From the IMG/VR virus record IMGVR_UViG_3300012683_000009: a stretch of DNA of 61,886 bases; one strand, written 5' to 3'. Shown here piece after piece: positions 1-43,159 of this stretch. The position numbers and the translations under genes are program-made. Below the pieces are notes generated by a model. That model was not told where the DNA came from and ran no database searches. It worked only from the letters and a program-made list of their open reading frames with translations. The DNA comes from a virus. Position 1 is the stretch's first letter. Each line of letters opens with the position of its first letter.

Positions 1-1020
1 AGGGCACCGTGTCGAGCAGTGAGACGATATGCCTCGCCAAGTCGAACCTGGCCTCTGAGAGAGGCACAGACTCGGATAGCGCCGCTGTCATCCTTCGAGA
101 GGCGATGAGAGCCTCGGAGAAGGAGACAGTCGTCAGCAGAGGCTGGTGGAAGTCCGCCTTCGAGGTCATGGCATCGGAGGAGGAGACGCTCTCGTTCAGA
201 GCCACTACCGTCCTCTTCAGGGCAGCCAGGTTCTCCACCAAGGCATCTGTCTCAGCCAGGGGCTGAATGTAGTGCGCCAGGGACGCCAGGGACTCTGAGG
301 AGGGCACAGACTCTGCGAGCAGCGCCCTGAACTTGCCGATCGCAACCATGGCCTCTGAGAAGGACACGCTCTCTGCCAGAGGGATCACCACTCGGTAGAG
401 TGCAGCCAGGCTGTCGGAGAAGGGGACGGTCTCTGAGAGCAGAGGGTGCGCCCTCATGATTGCCGTCAGAGACTCAGTCAGGCCGACCGTCTCGGAGAGG
501 AAGAACTCAGCGTGGTTGCCAAGAGCTTCATTCAACGAGTCCGTCTCGTTCAAGAACTGAACGAAGTGCATCACGACGGTCTCTGCCTCTGAGAGGGTGA
601 CCGTCTCGCTCAGAGCCGCTGTCATTCCCTTGGATACGAGAAGTGTGTTCGCCAGCGTGACAGTCTCGTTCAGGGTGCTAAAGAAGTGGGCAAGGGAGAC
701 GAGCGACTCTGTGAGAGTCACCGTCTCATTCAGTGAGGCCTTGAAGGCCGCCAGGGCGACCATCGACTCCGACAGGCCCACCGTCTCGGACAACGAGTTG
801 AAGAGACGAGCAATGGACGCCAACGACTCGGAGAGCCCCACGGTCTCCGACAGCACCTTGAGCATGTGCTGACTCACAGAGACGCTGTCAGAGAAAGCTA
901 CGGTCTCCGGAAGAGGTTGGATGCCGGCGAAGCGGCTGGCCAGGGACTCTACGGAAGCCACCGTCTCCGGAAGAGGGGCCGAGAAAGCTACGACGTTGCC
1001 GCCGGCGTGGTCGGAAGGGT
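1..1020. repeat. About 17 copies of a degenerate 60-bp tandem repeat (each 60-nt line starts aggNcacNgNctc...), coding
   Basis: Seen directly: the 60-nt sequence lines are in register from 1 to about 1020. Confidence 0.8.
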
Positions 1021-1162
1021 TGAGACGGATCTCGTTGGTTGCGTCTTGCGATGGCCTCATCAAGAAGATGTTGACGAGGGTTCTTGTGGCCGCATCAACA
1101 GGCAGCAGAACGATGTTGCCTGGAGTGCCGTCCGCCTGGGCGAGGTAGACGTTGACGGACAT
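1..1162 (-). CDS. Partial (3'-truncated by window edge) fibre-like protein built of 20-aa tandem repeats (consensus about LSETVxLSESLxxLAxFxxx); ATG at 1162-1160
   Basis: Manual translation of the reverse strand from ATG 1162 gives an open frame with no stop to position 1 (over 380 aa); absent from the ORF track because it has no in-window stop; 60-bp periodicity of DNA; lies directly downstream of the 1172..1681 gene on the same strand. Confidence 0.6.
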   Translation of the reverse strand, partial: MSVNVYLAQADGTPGNIVLLPVDAATRTLVNIFLMRPSQDATNEIRLNPSDHAGGNVVAFSAPLPETVASVESLASRFAGIQPLPETVAFSDSVSVSQHMLKVLSETVGLSESLASIARLFNSLSETVGLSESMVALAAFKASLNETVTLTESLVSLAHFFSTLNETVTLANTLLVSKGMTAALSETVTLSEAETVVMHFVQFLNETDSLNEALGNHAEFFLSETVGLTESLTAIMRAHPLLSETVPFSDSLAALYRVVIPLAESVSFSEAMVAIGKFRALLAESVPSSESLASLAHYIQPLAETDALVENLAALKRTVVALNESVSSSDAMTSKADFHQPLLTTVSFSEALIASRRMTAALSESVPLSEARFDLARHIVSLLDTVP

Positions 1163-1171
1163 AGGAGGACC

Positions 1172-1681
1172 TCACGAAGGAACGAGGGTCCTCACCGACG
1201 ATCCGATGAAGTCTGGGGATCCAGCTTTGTAGGCGACCAGGAAGTGGTTCTGAGAGGGGTACTGCGAGATGAACTCGAAGTAGCCGCCAGAGTCGCTCGT
1301 GACTTCGGCGATGAACACCTCGGAGACGTCTGACGTGTTGATGAGGTACCCACGGATGAGGCAGCTTCCGAGTGGGTTGCCGTTTCCGTCCTTGGTCACG
1401 CCGACGATCTTGAGCTGCGACTGGCAGCCACCCTCTTGTGGAGGAGGGGCCCAACGCCCGGTGGCAGTGGCATCTTCACTCAGAATGCCACAGGACATCT
1501 CAGGGCCGCAGTAACGAGTCCTGGGCCACAGAACGGCATCGGCGAAGGGAGCTGTGGCAGTGAACGTACCTGCCTGCTCCGGCACCGACTGGTACTGAGG
1601 GGGAGCGCCACGATCATCGTTCGGCACCGTGAACCACACGGCGCTCGTGTTGCCGTTCGCTGGAAGAGTGAACTTGCTCAC
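1172..1681 (-). CDS. Beta-sandwich (carboxypeptidase-regulatory-like) domain protein, probable fibre/virion-associated
   Basis: ORF track; motif GVTKDGNGNPLGSCLIRGYLINTSD resembles CarbopepD_reg-like fold; same-strand cluster with fibre genes. Confidence 0.5.
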   Translation of the reverse strand: MSKFTLPANGNTSAVWFTVPNDDRGAPPQYQSVPEQAGTFTATAPFADAVLWPRTRYCGPEMSCGILSEDATATGRWAPPPQEGGCQSQLKIVGVTKDGNGNPLGSCLIRGYLINTSDVSEVFIAEVTSDSGGYFEFISQYPSQNHFLVAYKAGSPDFIGSSVRTLVPS

Positions 1682-1899
1682 GGTCGTACCAGGGTGGGGT
1701 CCGCAGGCTCGATGGAAACGTCTTTCGGTGGAACCACCAGAGGGGCGTTGGGCCTCCCATGGTTCCTCACGGCGTCGATGGCGTTGTTCAGCATGGCGAG
1801 GCAGAACACCTTGTCGGCGATCGGCCCTTCGACACTCAGCGCACCGTCAGGCCAGCACTTGATGACAAGGGCAACGACAGGTTGCTTCTGATCCGCCAT
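1678..1899 (-). CDS. Hypothetical protein (73 aa)
   Basis: ORF track; 4-nt overlap coupling with neighbours. Confidence 0.4.
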   Translation of the reverse strand: MADQKQPVVALVIKCWPDGALSVEGPIADKVFCLAMLNNAIDAVRNHGRPNAPLVVPPKDVSIEPADPTLVRP

Positions 1900-1908
1900 G
1901 GTACCACC

Positions 1909-2340
1909 TCATTCGTCGATCACGGCCCAGACGTCGCAGACCGGGGCGGTCGCGATGATCCAGACGACGATGCTGTTGCTGATGGGAACGCCGAGACCTC
2001 TTGGGAAGGTCCAGATGATACCAGCACCGATCGTGGCCGTGCAGGCGAAACGACGGAAGAAGTTGGTGGGGACGGTCGGAGCGGTACCCCACGCCACTGC
2101 CGCAGTCGTGAGACCCGTCGGGCCACCACCGTCTGCCTCGTCGAGGAAGGTCTGAGGCGAGGTCGGGGTGACGCCGATGGCGCCAGGACGGCCCAGGCCG
2201 TACACGCCGGCGGTCGCAGCGGTCTGGCTGATGCCGACCTCCATGATCTTCGGCTTGTTGGTTGCCGCCGTGCGGACTTCCCAGCTCGGGGTCGCAGCGG
2301 TACCCGAGGTGGTGCGCTGCGAGAGTGAGTAGATGGCCAT
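1909..2340 (-). CDS. Hypothetical protein (143 aa), G/A/T-rich, probably structural
   Basis: ORF track; compact same-strand packing. Confidence 0.45.
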   Translation of the reverse strand: MAIYSLSQRTTSGTAATPSWEVRTAATNKPKIMEVGISQTAATAGVYGLGRPGAIGVTPTSPQTFLDEADGGGPTGLTTAAVAWGTAPTVPTNFFRRFACTATIGAGIIWTFPRGLGVPISNSIVVWIIATAPVCDVWAVIDE

Positions 2341-2347
2341 GTTCGTC

Positions 2348-2935
2348 TTACCCCAGGGTGATGGTGTACGTGATCTCCAGCGTGTCGTTGAGCACGAGCG
2401 AACGCTGGGTGAAGGCGAGAACGTGGTTCATGGTGCCGCTGGATGACGCCGTGAAGAGCGCTGCCTTCTGAGCCGACTGCGAGCCGGTGGCCGTGAAGGT
2501 CTTGTCGACGGTGGTCTGGTTGCCTGCGCCGGTGGGCAGCACGACGATGCCCTGAGCTCTGGTGAGCCCGTTGGCTGCGATCTCGTTCGAGAGGGTGGTT
2601 GAGGTCGCCGTCTCGGTGAGAGCATCGTTCGAGAGGGCGACGTAGTTCAGCCCGTTCGCACCGAGACCGGAAGTGCCGTAGCCCTGGGTGTGAAGGAAGA
2701 TGCGGCCGGGGTTGGTGATGAGGTTCCAGACGACCTCTGGCTCATCCACCATCTTGAAACTGCGAGGGTCGGGGACGAAGAGCCCCGTGGCCTTGTCCAT
2801 CAGGAAGTCCGTCGGCCGACGGTGGGTGATCTTCATCTGAGCTCGGCCGATCGGGATGAACTCCTTCAGAGGCGAGCGGAGAAGAACGGAAGCTGCCATC
2901 TTCTCTGCACTACGAACGAGCTCTCGCATGTCCAT
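2348..2935 (-). CDS. Hypothetical structural-like protein (195 aa)
   Basis: ORF track; T/S/G-rich beta-like composition. Confidence 0.5.
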   Translation of the reverse strand: MDMRELVRSAEKMAASVLLRSPLKEFIPIGRAQMKITHRRPTDFLMDKATGLFVPDPRSFKMVDEPEVVWNLITNPGRIFLHTQGYGTSGLGANGLNYVALSNDALTETATSTTLSNEIAANGLTRAQGIVVLPTGAGNQTTVDKTFTATGSQSAQKAALFTASSSGTMNHVLAFTQRSLVLNDTLEITYTITLG

Positions 2936-3238
2936 GTCTTACTGCTCCTGAAGTGAGGGGCCCGATGGCCAAGGGAGAGAACTGGAGTTCCCGGACGTGA
3001 GGTGGCATGGTACCCGTCCGGGTGTTCGTCAGAGAAGCAAAAGTTTGGTGTCAAGAGTGATGGAAGGTTAACCGGTACGGGATACCGGGCTCCGCTCGAA
3101 ACGGATGCGCTCCCTCCGGGGAGTGGGCTTCGACTGCTCAACCTTCCGCTTCTGGAGAGTAAACAGCGTAGGTCGCTGGCCCGCCTGCTAAGCGGTGCGC
3201 CCCGAAAGGGGTGTGATTCGAGTTCACTGCTCTCCGCT

Positions 3239-6200
3239 TCACTTCTTCTTCTTGAAAACGACTTGGACGCTCGGACGAAGGATCTGAGAACCCTCGCCAA
3301 CGAGAAGAGTGACCTGGCCGTGGAGAAGTACCTTGCCGGTGGCGGTTCCCGCTTCGAAGATGACGTGGTCTCCCTCGTTGATCTCGTTCGGCGACTGACC
3401 TCCCTCGTTGACAGGGACGGGCGCAGCAAAGACGAAGTCCGGGAACGTCGGCATCCAGTCGGTGCTCGGCTCACGCTCCAGCTTGACGAAGAAGGAACCA
3501 CCCTCTTGAACAAGAGGAGCCTTCTGCCAGATGAAGTCCGGCATGATCGGCAGCCACTCGACATCTGGCACCCGGATGAAGATGCGTGTGTAACCAAACG
3601 CTCCTGTGTCGACAGGTCTTGGTGCTGCCCGAGCGAAGTCTGGGAAGTCCGGCGACCACGCAAGAGCGGGCGTGTAGTCGAGATCGAGGAACGAGATCGT
3701 CCCCGTGTCGACTGGACGAGGCAGAGCTCTTCCAGCGAAGTCAGGGTAGCTCGGCGCCCAGTCGACGTAGGGCTCGTATTCGAGGTGAGCACGGAAGACA
3801 CCGCCGACATTGACTGGAGGCTGAGCCTTCCTTGCGAAGTCTGGGTAGTCGGGGAGCCAGTCGACGGCGGGCTCACGCTCCTGGATGACGATGACGCTCT
3901 GGCCTTGCGGAACGAGAGGCGTCTTGCCCCGAGCGAAGTCCGGATAGTCCGGGTACCAGAGAGAGTTGACCGTCGGGGCAACGAAGCGCTGGAAGAAGTA
4001 ACCGCCTTCGTTGACGGCACGAGGCAGAGCTCTTGCTGCGAAGTCTGGGTAGTCCGGAGACCAGTCGAGCTGAGGCTCTCTCTCCAGATGGGTGCGGAAG
4101 ACGCCACCTTCATTGACCGGCCTCTTCGCCGCACGTGCGAAGTCTGGGTAGCTCGGTTCCCAGGAGAGCTTCGGAACGAAGTCCGGATCAAGGAACGAAG
4201 CCCCGCCCTCTCTCAGGGTCAACGCACGAGGGAGAGGAGCAACCGCATCCTGGTAGGACGGGAACCAGTCGGTGGGCTCGTACTCCAGATGAGTGCGGAA
4301 CTGCCCACCCTCGTTGACTGGACGAGGGGCAGCTCTGGCGAAGTCTGGGAAGTCTGGGAGCCAATCGACATCTGGCTCTCTCTCAAGCTTGACGAAGAAC
4401 GCTCCGCCGACGTTCAGCGGAGGACGAGCAGCACGAGCGAAGTCAGGGAAGCTCGGGGACCAAGAGAGCTTTGGTACGAAGTCGAAGTTGTCGAAGGGGG
4501 CGAGACCGCCTTCATTGACCGCTCTTGGGAGAGCTCGACCTGGGAAGTCTGGGTACTCAGGGCTCCAGTCAGTCGTCGGTTCGTACTCAAGATGCGTCCT
4601 GAAGACGCCGCCCTCATTGACGGGGCGTGCAGCCGCCCTGGCGAAATCCGGGAAGTCTGGGAGCCAATCCGTGACCGGAATGCGAGGAGGAGTGGCTGGG
4701 ACCCGGAAGACACCGCCTTCGTTGACAGGCCTCGGAGCTGCCCGAGCGAAGTCAGGAAAGTCCGGCAACCAGTCGGTGGTCGGCTCACGCTCTTGAATGA
4801 CGAGAGCGAAGAAGCCCTCTCGAACAAGAGGAGCACTGGTCCTGGCGAAGTCTGGAAATGCGGGGGACCAAGACAGTTTCGGAACGAAATCGAAGTTGTC
4901 GAGAGAGGCGTACCCGCCTTCGTTTACTGGCCGTAGAGCTTTCCTACCGGCGAAGTCTGGGTAATCCGGAAGCCAATCGGTCGTTGGCTCGTACTCAAGG
5001 TGAGCTCGGAAGACGCCACCCTCGTTGACCGGCCGAGGCGCTGCTCTGGCAAAGTCAGGGTAGTCGGGAAGCCAGTCAGTGACTGCTTCACGCTCTTGAA
5101 TGACGAGGACACTGAGACCGGTGTCGACGGGCCGAGGCTTCGCTCTTGCGAAGTCCGGGTAGCTCGGAGCCCACGCCAGCTTGGGAACGAAGTCTGGATC
5201 GAGGAACGAGAGACCCGTCTCGGCAAGAGCAGTTGCTCTCTTGGCTGCCTGACCTGGGAAGTCCGGATAGTCCGGGCTCCAGTCGGTGGTGGGCTCGTAT
5301 TCGAGGTGGGTTCTAAAGAGACCACCTTCGTTGACCGGTCGAAGAGCCGCACGACCAGCGAAGTCAGGGTAGTCAGGACTCCAATCGAGCTGTGGCTCCC
5401 TCTCCAGATTCGTCCAGAAGAGACCACCCTGTGGGTTTCGAGCAGCGGCCCGAACCTGATCAACACCTTGGTCCCACGGGAAGCCAGTTGACGGGTCGAA
5501 GCCTGTCGGAGTGAAGACGAAAGGAGCTTCTCCGCCCTTCTCGACAGGAACTGCTCTTGCCCGAGCGAAGTCCGAGAAGGTCGGCTGCCACGCCATCTTC
5601 GACACGAAGTCGAGAACGGGCCCTCGGATGTTCTCCCACTGGCTGACGGCGAACGGTGAGAGAGTGTTGCCGTTGACGGAAGAGTCGACGAGCTTGTCGG
5701 CTTCCGACGCGAACTTCCAGAACCCGCTCAGGTTCGAAGTTCTGACCGTGGTGAACGAAAGACGCTCAGCCTCGATCTCAGCGTCAGTGAGCTGGGCATC
5801 GTACAGCTTCCAAAGAGACAACCCTCCCGTTAGGAAGTTGGAAGTCGTGTACGAGAAGTACATCTTGAACGAGGCGCCCTGGGCGACGATCGTTCCTGTG
5901 GCACTGACGATGGCGTCGGTCTCGGTGCCACGGAAGATGGTAGCCGTGGTGCCGTTGACCCGAAGAGCGATGAAGTAATACTTCTGATCGACCAGCGCTC
6001 CGGAGATCGTCGCTGGCCGGGTGAAGCCGAAGGTGTCGACGAGAGCGACCTGCCCGGTCTTGAATTCAAGAGCGAGACCAGTGCCGGCGGCGTCACTGAC
6101 CCAGATCAGTGAGTCGTCGGCAGTAGCTGCATCGAACTTGGCCCAACCGCAGACCGTGTAGCTGGTGTTGTTCGCCGGAAGCCCGCTACGGAAGAGCGGG

Positions 6201-7375
6201 TCGTTGGCCGAATCGAACCTGATGGCCCCGAGCCCGGCTCTGGGGACCTCAAAGAGTCCGCCCTCAGGAACTAGACGTGGAAGCCTTCGAGCAAAGTCCG
6301 GGTACTGTGGAAGCCACGAAGGACTGTTCGCCGGGCTGAAGCCTGCTGGAACGAAGGTAAAGTCGACAGCCCCACCACCGTCTAGAACTCCTCGACTCTG
6401 CGGACGTAGAGCAGGAGCTTCCTCTACCTGTTCGAAGAAGGTCTTGAGAGACGGATCGAACGGCCCATCCTGGAGGAACGGACCTTCTTCCGTGCTCCAA
6501 GAACCGGCCCCGATGTCAGAGAGATTACGAACAAAGCCGCTGGAGTCGATTAGACGAGTAGCGGCATTCTCCAGCTTCCAGACGAACTCGATGTTCGCCG
6601 TACGAGCAGGGAGAATTCGCGTCGACTCGGCGAGAGCTTCGGCTGCCGACAGCGGAACACTGTGAACCTTGAAGCCAGTGAGGCGTCCATCGAAGTTGTC
6701 GAGGAAATCGTCGGTACCAATCTCGAAGGTGGTGGGCGTCCACCCCGTCGTCATTCCAGTGACAACAGTATGAGTAAGCGGACCGCCAACTACGCCAACG
6801 TATGCATCGGCGTTTCCTCCAGTGCCGACCGAGATGCAGGCAAACATCCACTTGCCTGGGACGAAGGTCTCGATGAGAACGAAGCCTCCGTTCCAAGCGA
6901 GGAGGATCTCGTTGTCGCTGAGGACTTCGATGTTGTGGTAGTTGGTCGGGCCAGCGTCGTTCAGGGTCCAGAACGCAGCGTCGCCAGCAGGCGTGGTGGT
7001 CTTATAGAAGAAGCAAGAGACCGAGTAGTTGGTCGGCCCTACGAGATTCGTGTCTCGATGGAGTCCGTTGTTGTGATCAAGACCAACGAGCTTGAGCGCC
7101 GTTCCGAACTGAGACGGTGGTTTCGACTCGGCGTCCTGACGAAGGCCCGGCGACCGTACGGCTGCTCTTGCCGGCTGATCAGGGTACGACGGAAGCCAGG
7201 TCGGAACTGCTCCGGGATCTACTCCCGGAGGAACAAAGACGAAGGCTGTCGCCGCCAGAAGAAGAGCAGTAGCCCTTCTCGGCACGCTATGCGCCGGAGG
7301 CCCAGGAGGCTGCTCGTAGGGAAACCCGTTAGCCGGGTCGAACGGTGCCGCTTGCGTGGAGAGTAGGAGCGACAA
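3239..7375 (-). CDS. Giant (1378 aa) repeat protein: two LamG/concanavalin-like lectin domains followed by about 25 copies of a 33-aa repeat (DW[LS]PD[YF]PDFAR..P.PVNEGG...); probable tail fibre/receptor-binding protein
   Basis: ORF track; LamG-like segments (NYSVSCFFYKT...WMFACISV and NTSYTVCGWAKF...YYFIALRV); repeats evident in translation; overlapping ORFs 3002..4936(+) and 2866..4191(-) are shadows of the repeats. Confidence 0.75.
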   Translation of the reverse strand: MSLLLSTQAAPFDPANGFPYEQPPGPPAHSVPRRATALLLAATAFVFVPPGVDPGAVPTWLPSYPDQPARAAVRSPGLRQDAESKPPSQFGTALKLVGLDHNNGLHRDTNLVGPTNYSVSCFFYKTTTPAGDAAFWTLNDAGPTNYHNIEVLSDNEILLAWNGGFVLIETFVPGKWMFACISVGTGGNADAYVGVVGGPLTHTVVTGMTTGWTPTTFEIGTDDFLDNFDGRLTGFKVHSVPLSAAEALAESTRILPARTANIEFVWKLENAATRLIDSSGFVRNLSDIGAGSWSTEEGPFLQDGPFDPSLKTFFEQVEEAPALRPQSRGVLDGGGAVDFTFVPAGFSPANSPSWLPQYPDFARRLPRLVPEGGLFEVPRAGLGAIRFDSANDPLFRSGLPANNTSYTVCGWAKFDAATADDSLIWVSDAAGTGLALEFKTGQVALVDTFGFTRPATISGALVDQKYYFIALRVNGTTATIFRGTETDAIVSATGTIVAQGASFKMYFSYTTSNFLTGGLSLWKLYDAQLTDAEIEAERLSFTTVRTSNLSGFWKFASEADKLVDSSVNGNTLSPFAVSQWENIRGPVLDFVSKMAWQPTFSDFARARAVPVEKGGEAPFVFTPTGFDPSTGFPWDQGVDQVRAAARNPQGGLFWTNLEREPQLDWSPDYPDFAGRAALRPVNEGGLFRTHLEYEPTTDWSPDYPDFPGQAAKRATALAETGLSFLDPDFVPKLAWAPSYPDFARAKPRPVDTGLSVLVIQEREAVTDWLPDYPDFARAAPRPVNEGGVFRAHLEYEPTTDWLPDYPDFAGRKALRPVNEGGYASLDNFDFVPKLSWSPAFPDFARTSAPLVREGFFALVIQEREPTTDWLPDFPDFARAAPRPVNEGGVFRVPATPPRIPVTDWLPDFPDFARAAARPVNEGGVFRTHLEYEPTTDWSPEYPDFPGRALPRAVNEGGLAPFDNFDFVPKLSWSPSFPDFARAARPPLNVGGAFFVKLEREPDVDWLPDFPDFARAAPRPVNEGGQFRTHLEYEPTDWFPSYQDAVAPLPRALTLREGGASFLDPDFVPKLSWEPSYPDFARAAKRPVNEGGVFRTHLEREPQLDWSPDYPDFAARALPRAVNEGGYFFQRFVAPTVNSLWYPDYPDFARGKTPLVPQGQSVIVIQEREPAVDWLPDYPDFARKAQPPVNVGGVFRAHLEYEPYVDWAPSYPDFAGRALPRPVDTGTISFLDLDYTPALAWSPDFPDFARAAPRPVDTGAFGYTRIFIRVPDVEWLPIMPDFIWQKAPLVQEGGSFFVKLEREPSTDWMPTFPDFVFAAPVPVNEGGQSPNEINEGDHVIFEAGTATGKVLLHGQVTLLVGEGSQILRPSVQVVFKKKK
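3500..5900. repeat. Coding tandem repeat region (about 99-bp period) inside the giant gene
   Basis: Periodicity of W-PDYPDFAR motif in translation; boundaries approximate. Confidence 0.6.
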
Positions 7376-20058: not shown

Positions 20059-22395
20059 ATGATCCCGAACCACAAAGAACGAAACGTTCAGACCTCTGGT
20101 CTGGATGAGCAGGCTGTCTTCGGCATCTCTGCCGACAACCAAGCTCACATCATGACGATCCTCCGTGACACGCTCTACACGGACAAGATCCTCGCAGTTC
20201 TTCGAGAGTACAGCGCCAACGCCTGGGACTCTCATCGGATGAACGGGAAGGACGAGCTGCCCATCAAGGTCACGCTCCCCAGTCCGGCAGAGCCGACTCT
20301 CGCCATCCGTGACTTCGGTCCTGGCCTCACGCAGGAGGAAGTCTTCACCGTCTTCACTCAGTACGGAGCCAGCACCAAGAGGACCACCGACAAGGCCGTC
20401 GGAACCCTCGGCATTGGGTGCAAGAGCGGCTTCGCCTACTCCGACAGCTTCAGCATCGACTCGTACAACAACGGGACGAAGAGCACGTACGTGGCGGTGC
20501 TCGACAAGTCAGAGAAGGGCATGATCTCGCTGCTGAACCGTGAACCGTGCGGAGAAGAGTCGGGCCTCTGCATTCAGATTCCGGTCAGGCCCGAGGACAT
20601 CCCGCTGTTCATCGACAAGGCGAAGGGCCTCTTCAGGTACTTCCTCCCGAAGCCGGACATCAACACCGAGGTCGCCGACATGGCGGAGATCTCGATGGAG
20701 ATGAAGACTGGGGTGCTCACCAAGTCTGGCGGCTGGGTGGCGGTGATGGGGTGCATCCCCTACCGCATCAACATCGATCAGCTTCAGGCCATCCGCAGCA
20801 AAGAAGAGGACACCGTCAGCATCAAGAGGTTCCTCTCCGGGCTGAGCGGGCTGCTGTTCTTCAAGATCGGCGAGATCCACATCGTCGCCAACCGAGAAGA
20901 GCTCCGCTACACGAACGAGACCAAGACCGCCCTCGTGAATCGGTTCAACGATCTCATCGAGGAGTACGTCACCTCGGCTCTGAAAGACATCCAGGAGTCC
21001 GGGCTCACCTACTTCGAACGGCGAATGCGCCTCATGAAGTTCGAGGCTCTGAAGTTCGCCATTCCGGAGGTGTTGACGGAGTTCCTGAACCCGAACCTCG
21101 ACGTGAAGCACGTGAAGGACTTCTCCTTCTGCCTGACGGACTACAACCGGCACAAGCAGATCATCGGCAACTCTACAGACACCCTCCACATCCACGACGA
21201 GACCACCCTCGTCCTCAAAGATGACCCCAGGGCGTTCAGTGGCTTCAAGCTCGAAGGCCGCCCATACATCGTCAAGATCAGCCCGAAGCCAGGGAAGAAT
21301 GCAGAGCCCTGGTCGAAGATGATGCCCAAGTTCGAGAAGTTCCTCGAAGAGTACAAGATCACGGGCGTCAAGATCATCAAGCTCAGTGAGTGCGCTTGGG
21401 AAGCTCCGAAACGTGACTACGAACGTGGAGAGGTGAACGAGAAGCACAAGGTCACCACCTTCAAGTTCAACCCTGACTCGCACGGCAGTGGGTCCGATCT
21501 TTGGACCATCACGAAGCACAAGCCGGATGCCGCCGACGTGTTCGTGGTGCTGGAGAAGTTCAAGACCACCAAGAAAAGCACCTACAATCCCACGAGGAGG
21601 GAGAAGTACAGGTTCAGGGACAAGTATCACGAGACGAAGGCTTGGCTGGAGTTCTTCGGCGAGAAGATGCCTGCCGTCTACGGGTACAAGTCGACCGAGA
21701 AGAAACCGGCGTTGGAGAAGGACTTACTCGGTACCGAGTTCATCGAATGGGCTGCTGCGAGGAAGAAAGAGCTCACCGCCAAGGCGGAGATGAATCCCGT
21801 CATCTTGGAGATGGCGGAGATGGTGGCCTGGGACGATCTGGCCGAGGAAATCTACCCGAGCACGAATGAGAACCGCATCGCTTCTGCTCCGAAGCTGAAG
21901 GGGCTCACAGAGGCACTGGGGAAGAACCACCCTCTGGTTGCCGTCCTCGAACCGTACGTCGAGGCAGAGCTGAAGAAGAAGGAGTCCTGGTCCGGCTTCA
22001 ACTCCATGGAGAGCTTCATCGTCTCCAGCCAGGCACTCTGCAAGATGAAAGACAAGGCCCTAAAGGCCTTCCGGAAGAAGCTGACGAAGACCGTCGCCAA
22101 GTACCCATTGCTGAGGTCGGTACAGGGCGGCATTTCGAACCTACTGCGTGACTCGTACCCGCACTGGGTTCCCTACGTGAAGATGATCGACAAGGAGCTG
22201 AAAGATGGAAGCCGAACCGAAGTACACGATGACCAACGAGTCGCTGACCCTGGTGTGGCAGGGCAAGACGCACACAGTCCGGAGCTCACAGCCGAACTTC
22301 GAGAGCCTCCGGCGGGCGATCTCCCAGAAGGACTGGGACAGTATCCCCAAGTTCCTGACGGTCAACAGAACGCTGGGGGAGTGGGCGCAGGGTGA
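20059..22395 (+). CDS. rIIA: rIIA-like GHKL (Bergerat-fold) ATPase; ORF stays open to 22395 but coding signal (GC3) switches to the rIIB frame at about 22205
   Basis: ORF track; N box EYSANAWD, G1 IRDFGPGLT, G2 GTLGIGCKSGF; immediately followed by an rIIB-like gene as in T4. Confidence 0.7.
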   Translation: MIPNHKERNVQTSGLDEQAVFGISADNQAHIMTILRDTLYTDKILAVLREYSANAWDSHRMNGKDELPIKVTLPSPAEPTLAIRDFGPGLTQEEVFTVFTQYGASTKRTTDKAVGTLGIGCKSGFAYSDSFSIDSYNNGTKSTYVAVLDKSEKGMISLLNREPCGEESGLCIQIPVRPEDIPLFIDKAKGLFRYFLPKPDINTEVADMAEISMEMKTGVLTKSGGWVAVMGCIPYRINIDQLQAIRSKEEDTVSIKRFLSGLSGLLFFKIGEIHIVANREELRYTNETKTALVNRFNDLIEEYVTSALKDIQESGLTYFERRMRLMKFEALKFAIPEVLTEFLNPNLDVKHVKDFSFCLTDYNRHKQIIGNSTDTLHIHDETTLVLKDDPRAFSGFKLEGRPYIVKISPKPGKNAEPWSKMMPKFEKFLEEYKITGVKIIKLSECAWEAPKRDYERGEVNEKHKVTTFKFNPDSHGSGSDLWTITKHKPDAADVFVVLEKFKTTKKSTYNPTRREKYRFRDKYHETKAWLEFFGEKMPAVYGYKSTEKKPALEKDLLGTEFIEWAAARKKELTAKAEMNPVILEMAEMVAWDDLAEEIYPSTNENRIASAPKLKGLTEALGKNHPLVAVLEPYVEAELKKKESWSGFNSMESFIVSSQALCKMKDKALKAFRKKLTKTVAKYPLLRSVQGGISNLLRDSYPHWVPYVKMIDKELKDGSRTEVHDDQRVADPGVAGQDAHSPELTAELREPPAGDLPEGLGQYPQVPDGQQNAGGVGAG

Positions 22396-23191
22396 GTTCA
22401 CGTACAAGAACGAGAAGTTCTTCTTCAAGGACGAAGAGCTTCCGTCGAATCTGAACCAGAAGATCGTTCAGATGGCGACCGAGGGGCAGGATCCCACGGT
22501 GATGTTCCGGTTCTACGAGAGGCTGAGCCGAAATCCCTCGTTCCGCTCAGTGCAGCAGCTCTTCAAGTTCCTCGACCACGGGAACATTCCGTTCACCAAG
22601 GATGGGTGCTTCCTGGCGTACAAGAGCGTTCGGAGCGACTACAAGGACGTTCACTCCGGAACCTGGGACAACAAGCCTGGTGCGGTCAACGAGATGCCTC
22701 GGAATCAGATCTCCGATGATCCGAACCACGCCTGCCACGAAGGCTTCCACGTCGGAGCTCTGAAGTACGCAAGGGGCTTCAGCGGGTCGAAGATGGTCGT
22801 CTGCAAAGTCGACCCGGAGCACGTGGTCTGCGTCCCGTACGACTCGTCGCAGGAGAAGATGCGAGTCTGCAAGTACAAGGTCCTCGGTGAGTGGAGCGGG
22901 CAGCCTCTCGACGAGCTTCTCCACGACGATGAGGCCCTGGCCGAGCCGCAGCCGAAGGAGCACTCGACTCCGCCTCTGTCGAAGAAGCCGAAGCAGGAGG
23001 TCAAGGTCCAGAAGAAGTCAGTGACCAAGGACTTCAAGAAGTACGACAAGATGACCACGGCGGAGCTGATGACCTGCTCCCTCGATGAGCTCCGGCAGTA
23101 CGCCGGCAAGGGTCTGGAGATCGTAGGCGCCTCGAAGATTCCAGGAGGCAAGGTCCGACTCGTCACGGCCATCGAGAAGGTCCGGAAGTGA
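22205..23191 (+). CDS. rIIB: rIIB-like protein (328 aa)
   Basis: ORF track; from-memory similarity to the T4 rIIB C-terminal half (ours VQQLFKFLDHGNIPFTKDGCFLAYKSVRS...MRVCKYKVLGE; remembered T4 counterpart segments in the rIIA/rIIB finding). Confidence 0.6.
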   Translation: MEAEPKYTMTNESLTLVWQGKTHTVRSSQPNFESLRRAISQKDWDSIPKFLTVNRTLGEWAQGEFTYKNEKFFFKDEELPSNLNQKIVQMATEGQDPTVMFRFYERLSRNPSFRSVQQLFKFLDHGNIPFTKDGCFLAYKSVRSDYKDVHSGTWDNKPGAVNEMPRNQISDDPNHACHEGFHVGALKYARGFSGSKMVVCKVDPEHVVCVPYDSSQEKMRVCKYKVLGEWSGQPLDELLHDDEALAEPQPKEHSTPPLSKKPKQEVKVQKKSVTKDFKKYDKMTTAELMTCSLDELRQYAGKGLEIVGASKIPGGKVRLVTAIEKVRK

Positions 23192-23541
23192 CGTACGACC
23201 GGGTGGTGCTCGCCCACTACCCATTCCCAGCAGAGATCCGCTCAGTGACTGTCCTCGGTGATCACACTGTGCCGCAGGGAGCACTGAAGCGGAATCTCTG
23301 GGTCTTCATCCTGATGGAGTACGGCGGCAAGCTGAGGGTCTACCTCGAAGAGAAGCACACCGAGGCCAGACTCTCGGCCCGCCATGGGTGGGCGAAAGAC
23401 GGCAGTTCCACGTACAGCCGAATCAACAAGAGGGACACGGCCGTGCAGAAAGAGCCCGAGGTCCCTGACATGTTCACGAACCTCGTGGTCGACCACTTCC
23501 GGAAGCAGATCTGGTTCGAGAAGTGGGTAGGGAGAGCCTGA
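23188..23541 (+). CDS. Hypothetical protein (117 aa), GTG start
   Basis: ORF track; GTGA overlap. Confidence 0.5.
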   Translation: MTYDRVVLAHYPFPAEIRSVTVLGDHTVPQGALKRNLWVFILMEYGGKLRVYLEEKHTEARLSARHGWAKDGSSTYSRINKRDTAVQKEPEVPDMFTNLVVDHFRKQIWFEKWVGRA

Positions 23542-24596
23542 TGCCTGATGAGAGAAACGAACTGACAGCAGCCCTGTTCCGGCGGGGAGCTCTGATGGAT
23601 CTGCACATCGGGCGCTGGACAGCGATGAAGAAGATGCAGCCCAACGACTTGCTGATGGGGGAAGTTGACCTCAACACCATCTACCTCGGGCACAAGAAGC
23701 TCCTCCCGAAGAAGGCAACGGAGAAGCTCGTCGAGATCGAAGGCAAGGCTCGTACAGCCCTGGCCAGCAAATCGCTGGAGTTCCCCCTCGCCGGGGCTCG
23801 TTTCGTGACCTACGGAACCATCCCCGACGTTGTTGATCGACTCCGGCAGCTCAAGGTCGATTGGAATCGAGAGATCGATTCCCTCGTCGTGGACTACCCG
23901 ACACTCCGAGAGACACAGTTGGCTCTCCTGGAGACCCAGGCTCAGAGGTTCATCCAGGAGGAGCTCCGGAAGTTCGGAGCGGTCAGCACGGCCGACGCCT
24001 GGCAGAACCGCAAGGGCGAGCTCGACGAGTGGCTCAAGAAGCAGAGAGCTTCGAACCTCAGCTTCTACCCACGTGACGTGGAGGAGCTGCGGAAGAAGTT
24101 CAGCTTCGGCTGGCGCATGTTCCAGGTCTCTTCTCTAGACGGCGTCGATGACCTCGACGTGGAAGAGGTCAGAGCGGCCCAGGATCAGCTCAGGGCCGAT
24201 CTTCAGGGCTGGGTGAGGTCTGCGGCTGCCTCAATGCACCAGGCCCTTGGGGAGGCTGCTGCGAACGCCAGAAGCATGTTGGAGAAGAACGGCAAGCTGA
24301 CACCGAGGAACCTCCAGCCGCTGTTCAACGCCTTCGAGAACTTCCTCAAGGTGGACTTCACTGGTCAGTCGACGTTCCGAGCGACCATCGACACCATCAA
24401 GCAGCGGTTCCTCATCCAGAACGCTGACGGCTCATACGACCTGCCGAAGATGGCAGAGAGCATGGGAACTGAAGCTCGCCAGGCGGAGTTCGGCAACCTG
24501 CTCGTCAGCATGGCCGACCTGGCAGTCGATGAGACGGCTGCCAAGGCCGGCATCAACAGCCTCCGAGCAGACTTCGGACGGCTGGTGGAGCTCTGA
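23541..24596 (+). CDS. Hypothetical protein (351 aa)
   Basis: ORF 23523..24596 trimmed to ATG overlapping upstream stop (TGATG). Confidence 0.55.
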   Translation: MPDERNELTAALFRRGALMDLHIGRWTAMKKMQPNDLLMGEVDLNTIYLGHKKLLPKKATEKLVEIEGKARTALASKSLEFPLAGARFVTYGTIPDVVDRLRQLKVDWNREIDSLVVDYPTLRETQLALLETQAQRFIQEELRKFGAVSTADAWQNRKGELDEWLKKQRASNLSFYPRDVEELRKKFSFGWRMFQVSSLDGVDDLDVEEVRAAQDQLRADLQGWVRSAAASMHQALGEAAANARSMLEKNGKLTPRNLQPLFNAFENFLKVDFTGQSTFRATIDTIKQRFLIQNADGSYDLPKMAESMGTEARQAEFGNLLVSMADLAVDETAAKAGINSLRADFGRLVEL

Positions 24597-42764: not shown

Positions 42765-43146
42765 GGGCCCGACCTGGTTTCGACAGGGACGTAGAGATTC
42801 TTCGCTGCATGCCGAGCTGGCTCACAAGCTCGTAAATCCAAGAGAGCAAAACAACAAAAGCCAACGACAACGTTGAGCTGGCTGACAGCCCGGTTCGCCT
42901 GGCTGCTTGACCCCTGGTCTCGGTAAGCAGGCACCGAGTAGCTGAGACTGGGAAACCCATCCGGTGCTGGGGCTCGTTCAATCCTCAAGAGCGAGTTCGA
43001 GAGTCGTAACAGAGGCGTGCTGCCGAGGTGAGCCTGTCCGGGCTTCGCCCTACTCGGCATCGTCGTACAGAGTGAGAAACGGACTACGCATGTAGAAGTG
43101 ATGAGTCGAAGGTTTCTGGACGAGGGTTCGATTCCCTCCGGGTCCA
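42765..43146 (+). ncRNA. ssrA: tmRNA (ssrA), about 382 nt, with tag reading frame ANDNVELADSPVRLAA-stop (42860..42910)
   Basis: 5' GGGCCCGACCTGGTTTCGACAGGG and 3' ...GCATGTAGAAGTG...GGACGAGGGTTCGATTCCCTCCGGGTCCA align to the E. coli ssrA ends; acceptor pairing 42765-71 with 43139-45 includes a G3-U70 pair; tag ORF ends LAA-TGA. Confidence 0.85.
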
Positions 43147-43159
43147 CTTGGGAGAAGTC

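Follow-up and report, generated by a model that had tools for sequence, protein, structure and literature searches.

The left edge of a 61,886-nt stretch of viral DNA (IMG/VR record IMGVR_UViG_3300012683_000009; the whole stretch is called the window here) is crossed by a minus-strand reading frame that encodes a series of 20-aa repeats, which raises the questions of whether the frame is a gene, whether its repeats are unstable as DNA, and what a protein built in this way may do for the phage. The frame lies in the genome of a large uncultured phage of about 60% GC.

Reading frame and completion of the left-edge gene

The frame begins with an ATG at 1162..1160 (-) and contained 387 codons with zero stops down to base 1; each of the other five frames across 1..1162 contained 6-24 stops. 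The GC contents at the three codon positions (GC1/GC2/GC3 of 0.58/0.44/0.78) resembled those of confident genes in the window. A GAGG ribosome-binding box was found at 1170..1173 (-), 7 nt 5' of the ATG, where it overlaps the TGA of the preceding gene, and this overlap suggests translational coupling within the operon. Two plus-strand ORFs occupy the same region, at 9..266 (+) and 597..872 (+). In both, GC1 was lower than GC2 (0.47 and 0.58 in the former, 0.44 and 0.53 in the latter), which is an antisense pattern, and the former lies inside a minus-strand gene with homologues; as the original prediction had proposed, the two ORFs are shadows and not genes.

To extend the gene leftwards, an exact-protein look-up of the neighboring gene product p195 was used, which led to contig L017 (ENA ERZ27253174 k141_1051315, 88.9 kb). 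L017 was identical to the window across 12,935 nt save for three mismatches, none of which fell within the repeat gene. In L017, the gene occupies 11774..13210, running 91 codons past the window edge to a stop codon 274 nt past it, and the frame is open throughout its 478 codons. The feature that had been described as an edge-truncated gene open to the edge is a real gene, and its 5' four-fifths (387 of 478 codons; 1..1162 (-)) lie within the window. The complete protein of 478 aa consists of a 64-aa N-terminal region, 19 units (aa 65-444) and a 34-aa basic C-terminal tail, PQLLAPGASVTQFIGAKPTYPKIITIDLKKLKGR. The genes located 3' of the repeat gene in L017 are on the opposite strand, indicating that the repeat gene is the last of its operon; a terminator-like site was looked for after the gene, and none was found. 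An exact-match search of IMG/VR with the first 50 nt of the window found nothing, and a circular window as the source of the missing 3' end was rejected, as the junction gave an immediate stop and there was no terminal overlap.

Period and divergence of the repeat units

The array within the window (1..970 (-)) comprised 16 units and the start of a 17th, so the earlier count of about 17 was fair, and it had the consensus S-E-T-V-x-L-S-E-S-L-A-A-L-A-R-F-x-x-x-L. The 16 units spanned aa 65-382; 15 of them were exactly 20 aa long and one was 18 aa long. The amino-acid autocorrelation at lags 20 and 40 was 0.34 and 0.36, respectively, far above the maximum of 0.17 among 1000 shuffles, which bears out the 20-aa tandem period. 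The repeats had also been called near-perfect, and this was wrong. Pairwise identity between units averaged 36% at the amino-acid level (range 10-60%) and 48% at the DNA level (maximum 63%). Exact direct repeats in the DNA of the gene were no longer than 16 nt, and Tandem Repeats Finder reported no 60-bp array. Additionally, the Ser at the conserved positions was encoded by both TCN and AGY codons, which shows that the motif is kept at the protein level. The units are old and diverged, and they are alike only as a protein motif.

These values bear directly on the proposal that the gene is a slippage-prone, contingency-type DNA repeat, a hotspot for length variation whose frequent copy-number changes tune host range. 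A period of exactly 60 nt in all but one of the in-window units agrees with that proposal, and so does the unequal unit number among distant relatives, whose proteins were 391, 478 and 856 aa long. However, a contingency locus is built of near-identical DNA units, and units as diverged as these give slippage or unequal recombination nothing to act on, so the hotspot mechanism fails. The repeat gene was also unchanged between two independent assemblies of the same phage (the window and L017). The relatives that differ in unit number shared a mutual identity of only 31-37%, which indicates long-term modular evolution, and none above approximately 40% identity was present in 5.8 billion proteins, so that recent copy-number variants are beyond comparison. 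We consider a contingency locus very improbable. An exact period in a protein need not mean that the repeat is unstable at the DNA level.

The repeat family, its operon and its partner gene

A phmmer search revealed 13 unnamed metagenomic proteins that share the repeat (E = 1e-27 to 1e-4). When 1.84 billion cluster representatives were searched with a profile, the set grew to 4,545 proteins at E <= 1e-3, 276 of them at E <= 1e-30, all of which were unnamed and which reached lengths of up to 4,608 aa. The family motif is S-E-T-V-x-L-S-E-S-L followed by a variable half, and across 179 retrieved members the spacing was exactly 20 aa in 1,523 of approximately 2,600 motif spacings of <= 45 aa. When a degenerate two-unit DNA pattern was applied to IMG/VR, six stretches were found, five of which carried a repeat-protein ORF; the strict two-unit pattern, applied to 185,579 reference genomes, hit no true member and only two unrelated Gaiellaceae lipoproteins. 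Searches of Pfam (E <= 0.1), NCBIfam and PDB sequences with the repeat protein gave no match, and a PDB profile search at E <= 10 gave no fibre or decoration-protein match for the repeat. The sole profile match, a designed TPR-like protein (E = 6.6e-4), was taken as compositional. No cultured relative of the repeat protein was found: four members of the family, used as tblastn queries against 50,697 GenBank phage records, gave no match, and neither did blastn of the repeat-gene region against GenBank phages. Among curated profiles, phrog_12240 alone (PHROGs v4, function unknown) overlaps the repeat, and it was matched by six of 43 strong family members, down to E = 4.7e-43. The match of the window protein to it was weak (E = 1e-3 to 3e-3) and lies below a safe threshold. 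As judged from these sequence searches, the repeat protein belongs to a large metagenome-only family that no curated library describes.

Several members of the family carry other domains fused to the repeat. Laminin_G_3 was present in 11 of the 43 top members, and in many members it is placed before or between repeat arrays; GDSL esterase, GH5 cellulase and polysaccharide deacetylase domains were also found. In one IMG/VR member, a region that by eye looks like a beta-helix lies ahead of the repeat. The genes next to the homologues encode a pectate lyase and Phage_Wedge1 in one context and an apiosidase/Collagen_bind_2 protein in another.

In the window, the repeat gene closes a 13-gene minus-strand operon that runs from 10242 to beyond base 1 in the following order: a gp80 homologue, six small genes, a gene for a 1348-aa protein, p195, p143, p73, p169 and the repeat gene. 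The first gene (9850..10242 (-)) is homologous to gp80, the fibre I protein of the Ralstonia podophage GP4 (PF23140, E = 6.6e-33; 114 bits compared with a Pfam cut-off of 27; PDB 8JOU chain a, E = 1e-7), although the repeat protein itself is dissimilar to it. The Gp80 homologues of cultured phages are particle proteins encoded in tail or baseplate modules. The 1348-aa protein (3239..7285 (-)) contains two Laminin_G_3 domains and, after them, 20 consecutive units of 33-35 aa. These units carry 'W-x-P-x-[YF]-P-D-F...P-V-N-E-G-G', a repeat that is covered by no curated family; L001 has a related repeat in a 264-aa gene that adjoins its repeat-protein gene.

The four genes between the 1348-aa protein gene and the repeat gene are p195 (2348..2935 (-)), p143 (1909..2340 (-)), p73 (1678..1899 (-)) and p169 (1172..1681 (-)), the last of which lies directly upstream of the repeat gene. 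In the syntenic relative L012, identity to the window was 79% for p143, 72% for p195, 49% for p169 and 37% for the repeat protein. The repeat protein is thus far less conserved than p195 and p143, an evolution typical of host-recognition proteins. L012 also encodes a p73 homologue, and its repeat is fused to a LamG head (protein P0018), whereas the LamG domains of the window are in a separate protein. A second set of homologues was found in L023, the P22-like podophage MW202691.1, which has homologues of p73 and of p143 (53% identical). The C-terminal half of p169 shares 36% identity with the gene located just before the fibre-like gene of this podophage.

The conserved partner of the repeat gene is p195. 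Homologues with 46-79% identity were found in ten other contexts (L001, L003, L004, L005, L006, L008, L009, L012, L014 and L016), and in all 11 contexts, which were retrieved independently and include the window, p195 is located upstream of the repeat gene, either directly before it or elsewhere in the shared operon. When loci were picked through p195 alone, two of three had the repeat protein in the operon, one of these with Gp80 directly before p195. At least 1,158 protein clusters make up the very conserved p195 family; none of them has a name or a Pfam domain, and identities were 55-83% among the best 120 listed. No match to p195 was found in Pfam, PHROG or PDB. The similarity of p195 to the Gp80 family was weak; BLASTP was not significant, and the hhalign alignment was collinear but had E = 0.008 and a probability of 5%. 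As a separate observation, variable cassettes of fibre genes begin at p195 in many uncultured phages.

The two ends of the repeat protein were also compared with those of other proteins. The N-terminal non-repeat region (aa 1-64; 971..1162 (-)) contains two copies of a V-x-V-Y-L-x-x-x-D-G-T-P-x-x-I-V-L-x-P-type motif, and this duplication, recognized from the sequence, covers aa 3-48 (1021..1156 (-)). This motif also stands at the start of the L026 repeat protein, whose operon includes a p195 homologue, and of the fibre-like protein of L023 (6268..7302), which follows the p143/p73/p169 homologues and has a shaft that differs from the 20-aa repeat. The C-terminal tail (L017 13109..13207) ends in ...DLKKLKGR. 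A ...KLKGR ending was found in six other members, syntenic ones included, and in P0002, P0014, P0018 and P0042 KLKGR is followed by D plus 2-3 residues. This ending could be a putative attachment peptide or a processing site.

Unit pattern and a possible role as a fibre shaft

In a profile of 1,642 units, positions 2 and 8 were acidic, positions 4, 6, 10 and 20 were hydrophobic, and positions 1, 3, 7 and 9 held small polar residues. Positions 11-19 were variable, with weaker hydrophobic sites at 13/14 and 16/17, and Gly and Pro together accounted for at most 19% at every position, so there was no conserved turn. The column counts of the window units agreed with this family profile. The hydrophobic power peaked at periods of 2.0 and 3.33, positions 3-7 being strand-like and positions 8-20 helix-like. 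The repeat had been described as helical and amphipathic, which is half supported: the hydrophobic spacing of the variable half is helix-like, and the conserved half is strand-like. The pattern also differed from a canonical coiled coil, as 3-4 spacing was present only at positions 6-20 and was broken once per unit.

AlphaFold2 was run twice on the monomer, once with the full window fragment and 11 sequences and once with eight units and 34 in-phase repeat segments. Both runs gave a pLDDT of about 40 (39 and 41) and no usable model. Obligate oligomeric fibres often do badly in monomer structure prediction, and the low confidence proves nothing about the fold or about whether the protein is a fibre.

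Viral fibre shafts built of short repeats include the triple beta-spiral of adenovirus (15-aa repeats), the helix-turn-helix supercoil of phi29 gp8.5 and the repeats of T4 fibres. The window protein would resemble these by analogy, since a short repeat is iterated, flanked by attachment or binding modules and found in phage structural contexts; it differs from them in its 20-aa period, its motif, the lack of a conserved Gly/Pro turn and the lack of a match to any solved chain. In particular, the triple beta-spiral of adenovirus and reovirus calls for approximately 15 aa and a Gly/Pro turn, compared with 20 aa here. A PDB sequence match to the phi29 gp8.5 stem was looked for and not found, even by profile at E <= 10; this result bears on the sequence and not on the fold. 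The pattern was also similar to that of short (20-22 aa) leucine-rich repeats, as 11 conserved residues are followed by nine variable ones with strand-like and then helix-like spacing. However, the window motif is L-x3-V-x-L-x3-L, in contrast to L-x2-L-x-L-x2-N-x-L; there was no Asn ladder or conserved Asn, Pfam gave no LRR match at E <= 0.1, and the AlphaFold models of the window repeat showed no solenoid. Phage adhesins with Laminin_G_3, a concanavalin-like lectin domain, share this domain with many family members, but the window repeat protein has no lectin of its own, and the Laminin_G_3 domains sit in the neighboring 1348-aa protein.

On balance, we lean towards the interpretation that the array is the extended shaft of a modular, fast-evolving, host-binding fibre or adhesin on the virion surface. 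Each unit would contribute two segments, one conserved, acidic and strand-like (L-S-E-T-V-x-L-S-E) and the other variable, with helix-like hydrophobic spacing, and stacked units would build a rod whose length depends on how many of them there are. This rod may be mounted on the particle together with p195, p143, p73 and p169 and with the gp80-like fibre protein encoded further upstream. In relatives, the rods would bear lectin-like (Laminin_G_3), esterase or glycosidase heads, and the rod would thereby hold sugar-binding or sugar-cutting modules off the particle for host-surface recognition. The gp80 homologue in the operon and the Phage_Wedge1, pectate lyase and apiosidase genes near homologues link the repeat to fibre, baseplate and tailspike genes, and the fused lectin, esterase and glycosidase domains also speak for this role. 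The gene, its repeat, the family, the fusions, the operon and the partner gene are established by the data, and a place in the virion, the rod shape, the oligomeric state and the role in adhesion are inferred. The earlier description of the protein as fibre-like thus fits its context, although the structure predictions were unusable and lend no support to a rod shape or an oligomeric state. The surroundings of the operon also count against a fibre shaft, as it is placed amid early-type genes (the major-vault-protein-like gene, the AAA ATPase gene and rIIA/B), with no recognizable tail block.

The contexts of the homologues bear on where such a rod would be attached. The gene for homologue P0006 has a Mu-type portal gene on one side and the protease, cement and capsid genes on the other, and in the podophage MW202691.1 the cassette of p143, p73, p169 and the fibre gene lies between the portal and scaffold genes. 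Lineage relatives keep the C-terminal tail and vary the N-terminal head, a polarity known from Hoc. Together with the PHROGs label of the Gp80-like family, 'head protein', these features would suit a capsid fibre or decoration protein whose rod projects from the capsid, as phi29 gp8.5 or T4 Hoc does, and aids reversible attachment. We consider this reading unlikely, as Pfam and the GP4 structure place gp80 in the tail fibre, other homologues adjoin baseplate-wedge and tailspike genes, and the sequence resembles neither phi29 gp8.5 nor any decoration protein of solved structure. For the mount itself, Gp80 and the baseplate and tailspike neighbors favor the tail, and the portal-capsid contexts favor the capsid.

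In L014, the pair of p195 and the repeat gene is isolated, surrounded by replication genes that lie on the opposite strand. This context and the portal-capsid contexts indicate that a tail location is not general, and the isolated position of the pair also accords with a protein that acts during infection outside the virion, in surface binding, as a scaffold or in anti-defence, with the repeat as a flexible spacer or a solenoid binding surface. The position of the window operon among non-structural genes and the lack of a confident AlphaFold fold point in the same direction. Nevertheless, a non-virion role appears less probable again than a capsid fibre, because it does not agree with the lectin, esterase and glycosidase fusions or with the linkage to a Gp80 fibre homologue and, in other phages, to tailspike and baseplate genes; by eye, the N-terminus has no obvious signal peptide or transmembrane segment.

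If the array is a fibre shaft, the SETV repeat and p195 may together represent a widespread, undescribed fibre system of uncultured phages, in which a modular rod is swappable between tail and head positions and bears interchangeable lectin or enzyme heads. The fold of such a rod would be new, with a strand and a helix in each unit, and probably oligomeric. This wider proposal is possible but rather doubtful. Were it true, thousands of 'hypothetical' metagenomic phage proteins could be annotated as fibre shafts through the 20-residue motif, and p195 would become a marker for locating host-recognition genes in the genomes of uncultured phages, which would be useful in host prediction and in the engineering of receptor-binding modules. 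The resistance of the repeat to AlphaFold also makes it a candidate for a new fibrous fold.

The window carries several other recognizable genes, namely rIIA/rIIB, an AAA ATPase, a major-vault-protein-like gene, a tmRNA and a tRNA. The major-vault-protein-like gene (11127..13817 (+)) matched MVP_shoulder (E = 1.6e-30) and Vault_3, and its product was 64-72% identical in L001 and L012; a literature search for viral MVPs found a single report, a 2023 preprint (doi 10.1101/2023.11.10.566534). The rIIA and rIIB homologues (20059..23191 (+)) matched phrog_612 (E = 7e-96) and phrog_609 (E = 7e-68), respectively, and are followed by a DUF3150 protein gene (23523..24596). A tRNA-Ser(cga) was called by ARAGORN at 3062..3149 (+), antisense to the operon, but Rfam did not confirm the call at its gathering score. 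Of the three positions at which the window and L017 differ, two (3073 and 3087) fell inside this putative tRNA. Finally, a one-piece tmRNA was found at 42765..43149 (+) (Rfam RF00023, 151 bits), with the predicted tag ANDNVELADSPVRLAA.
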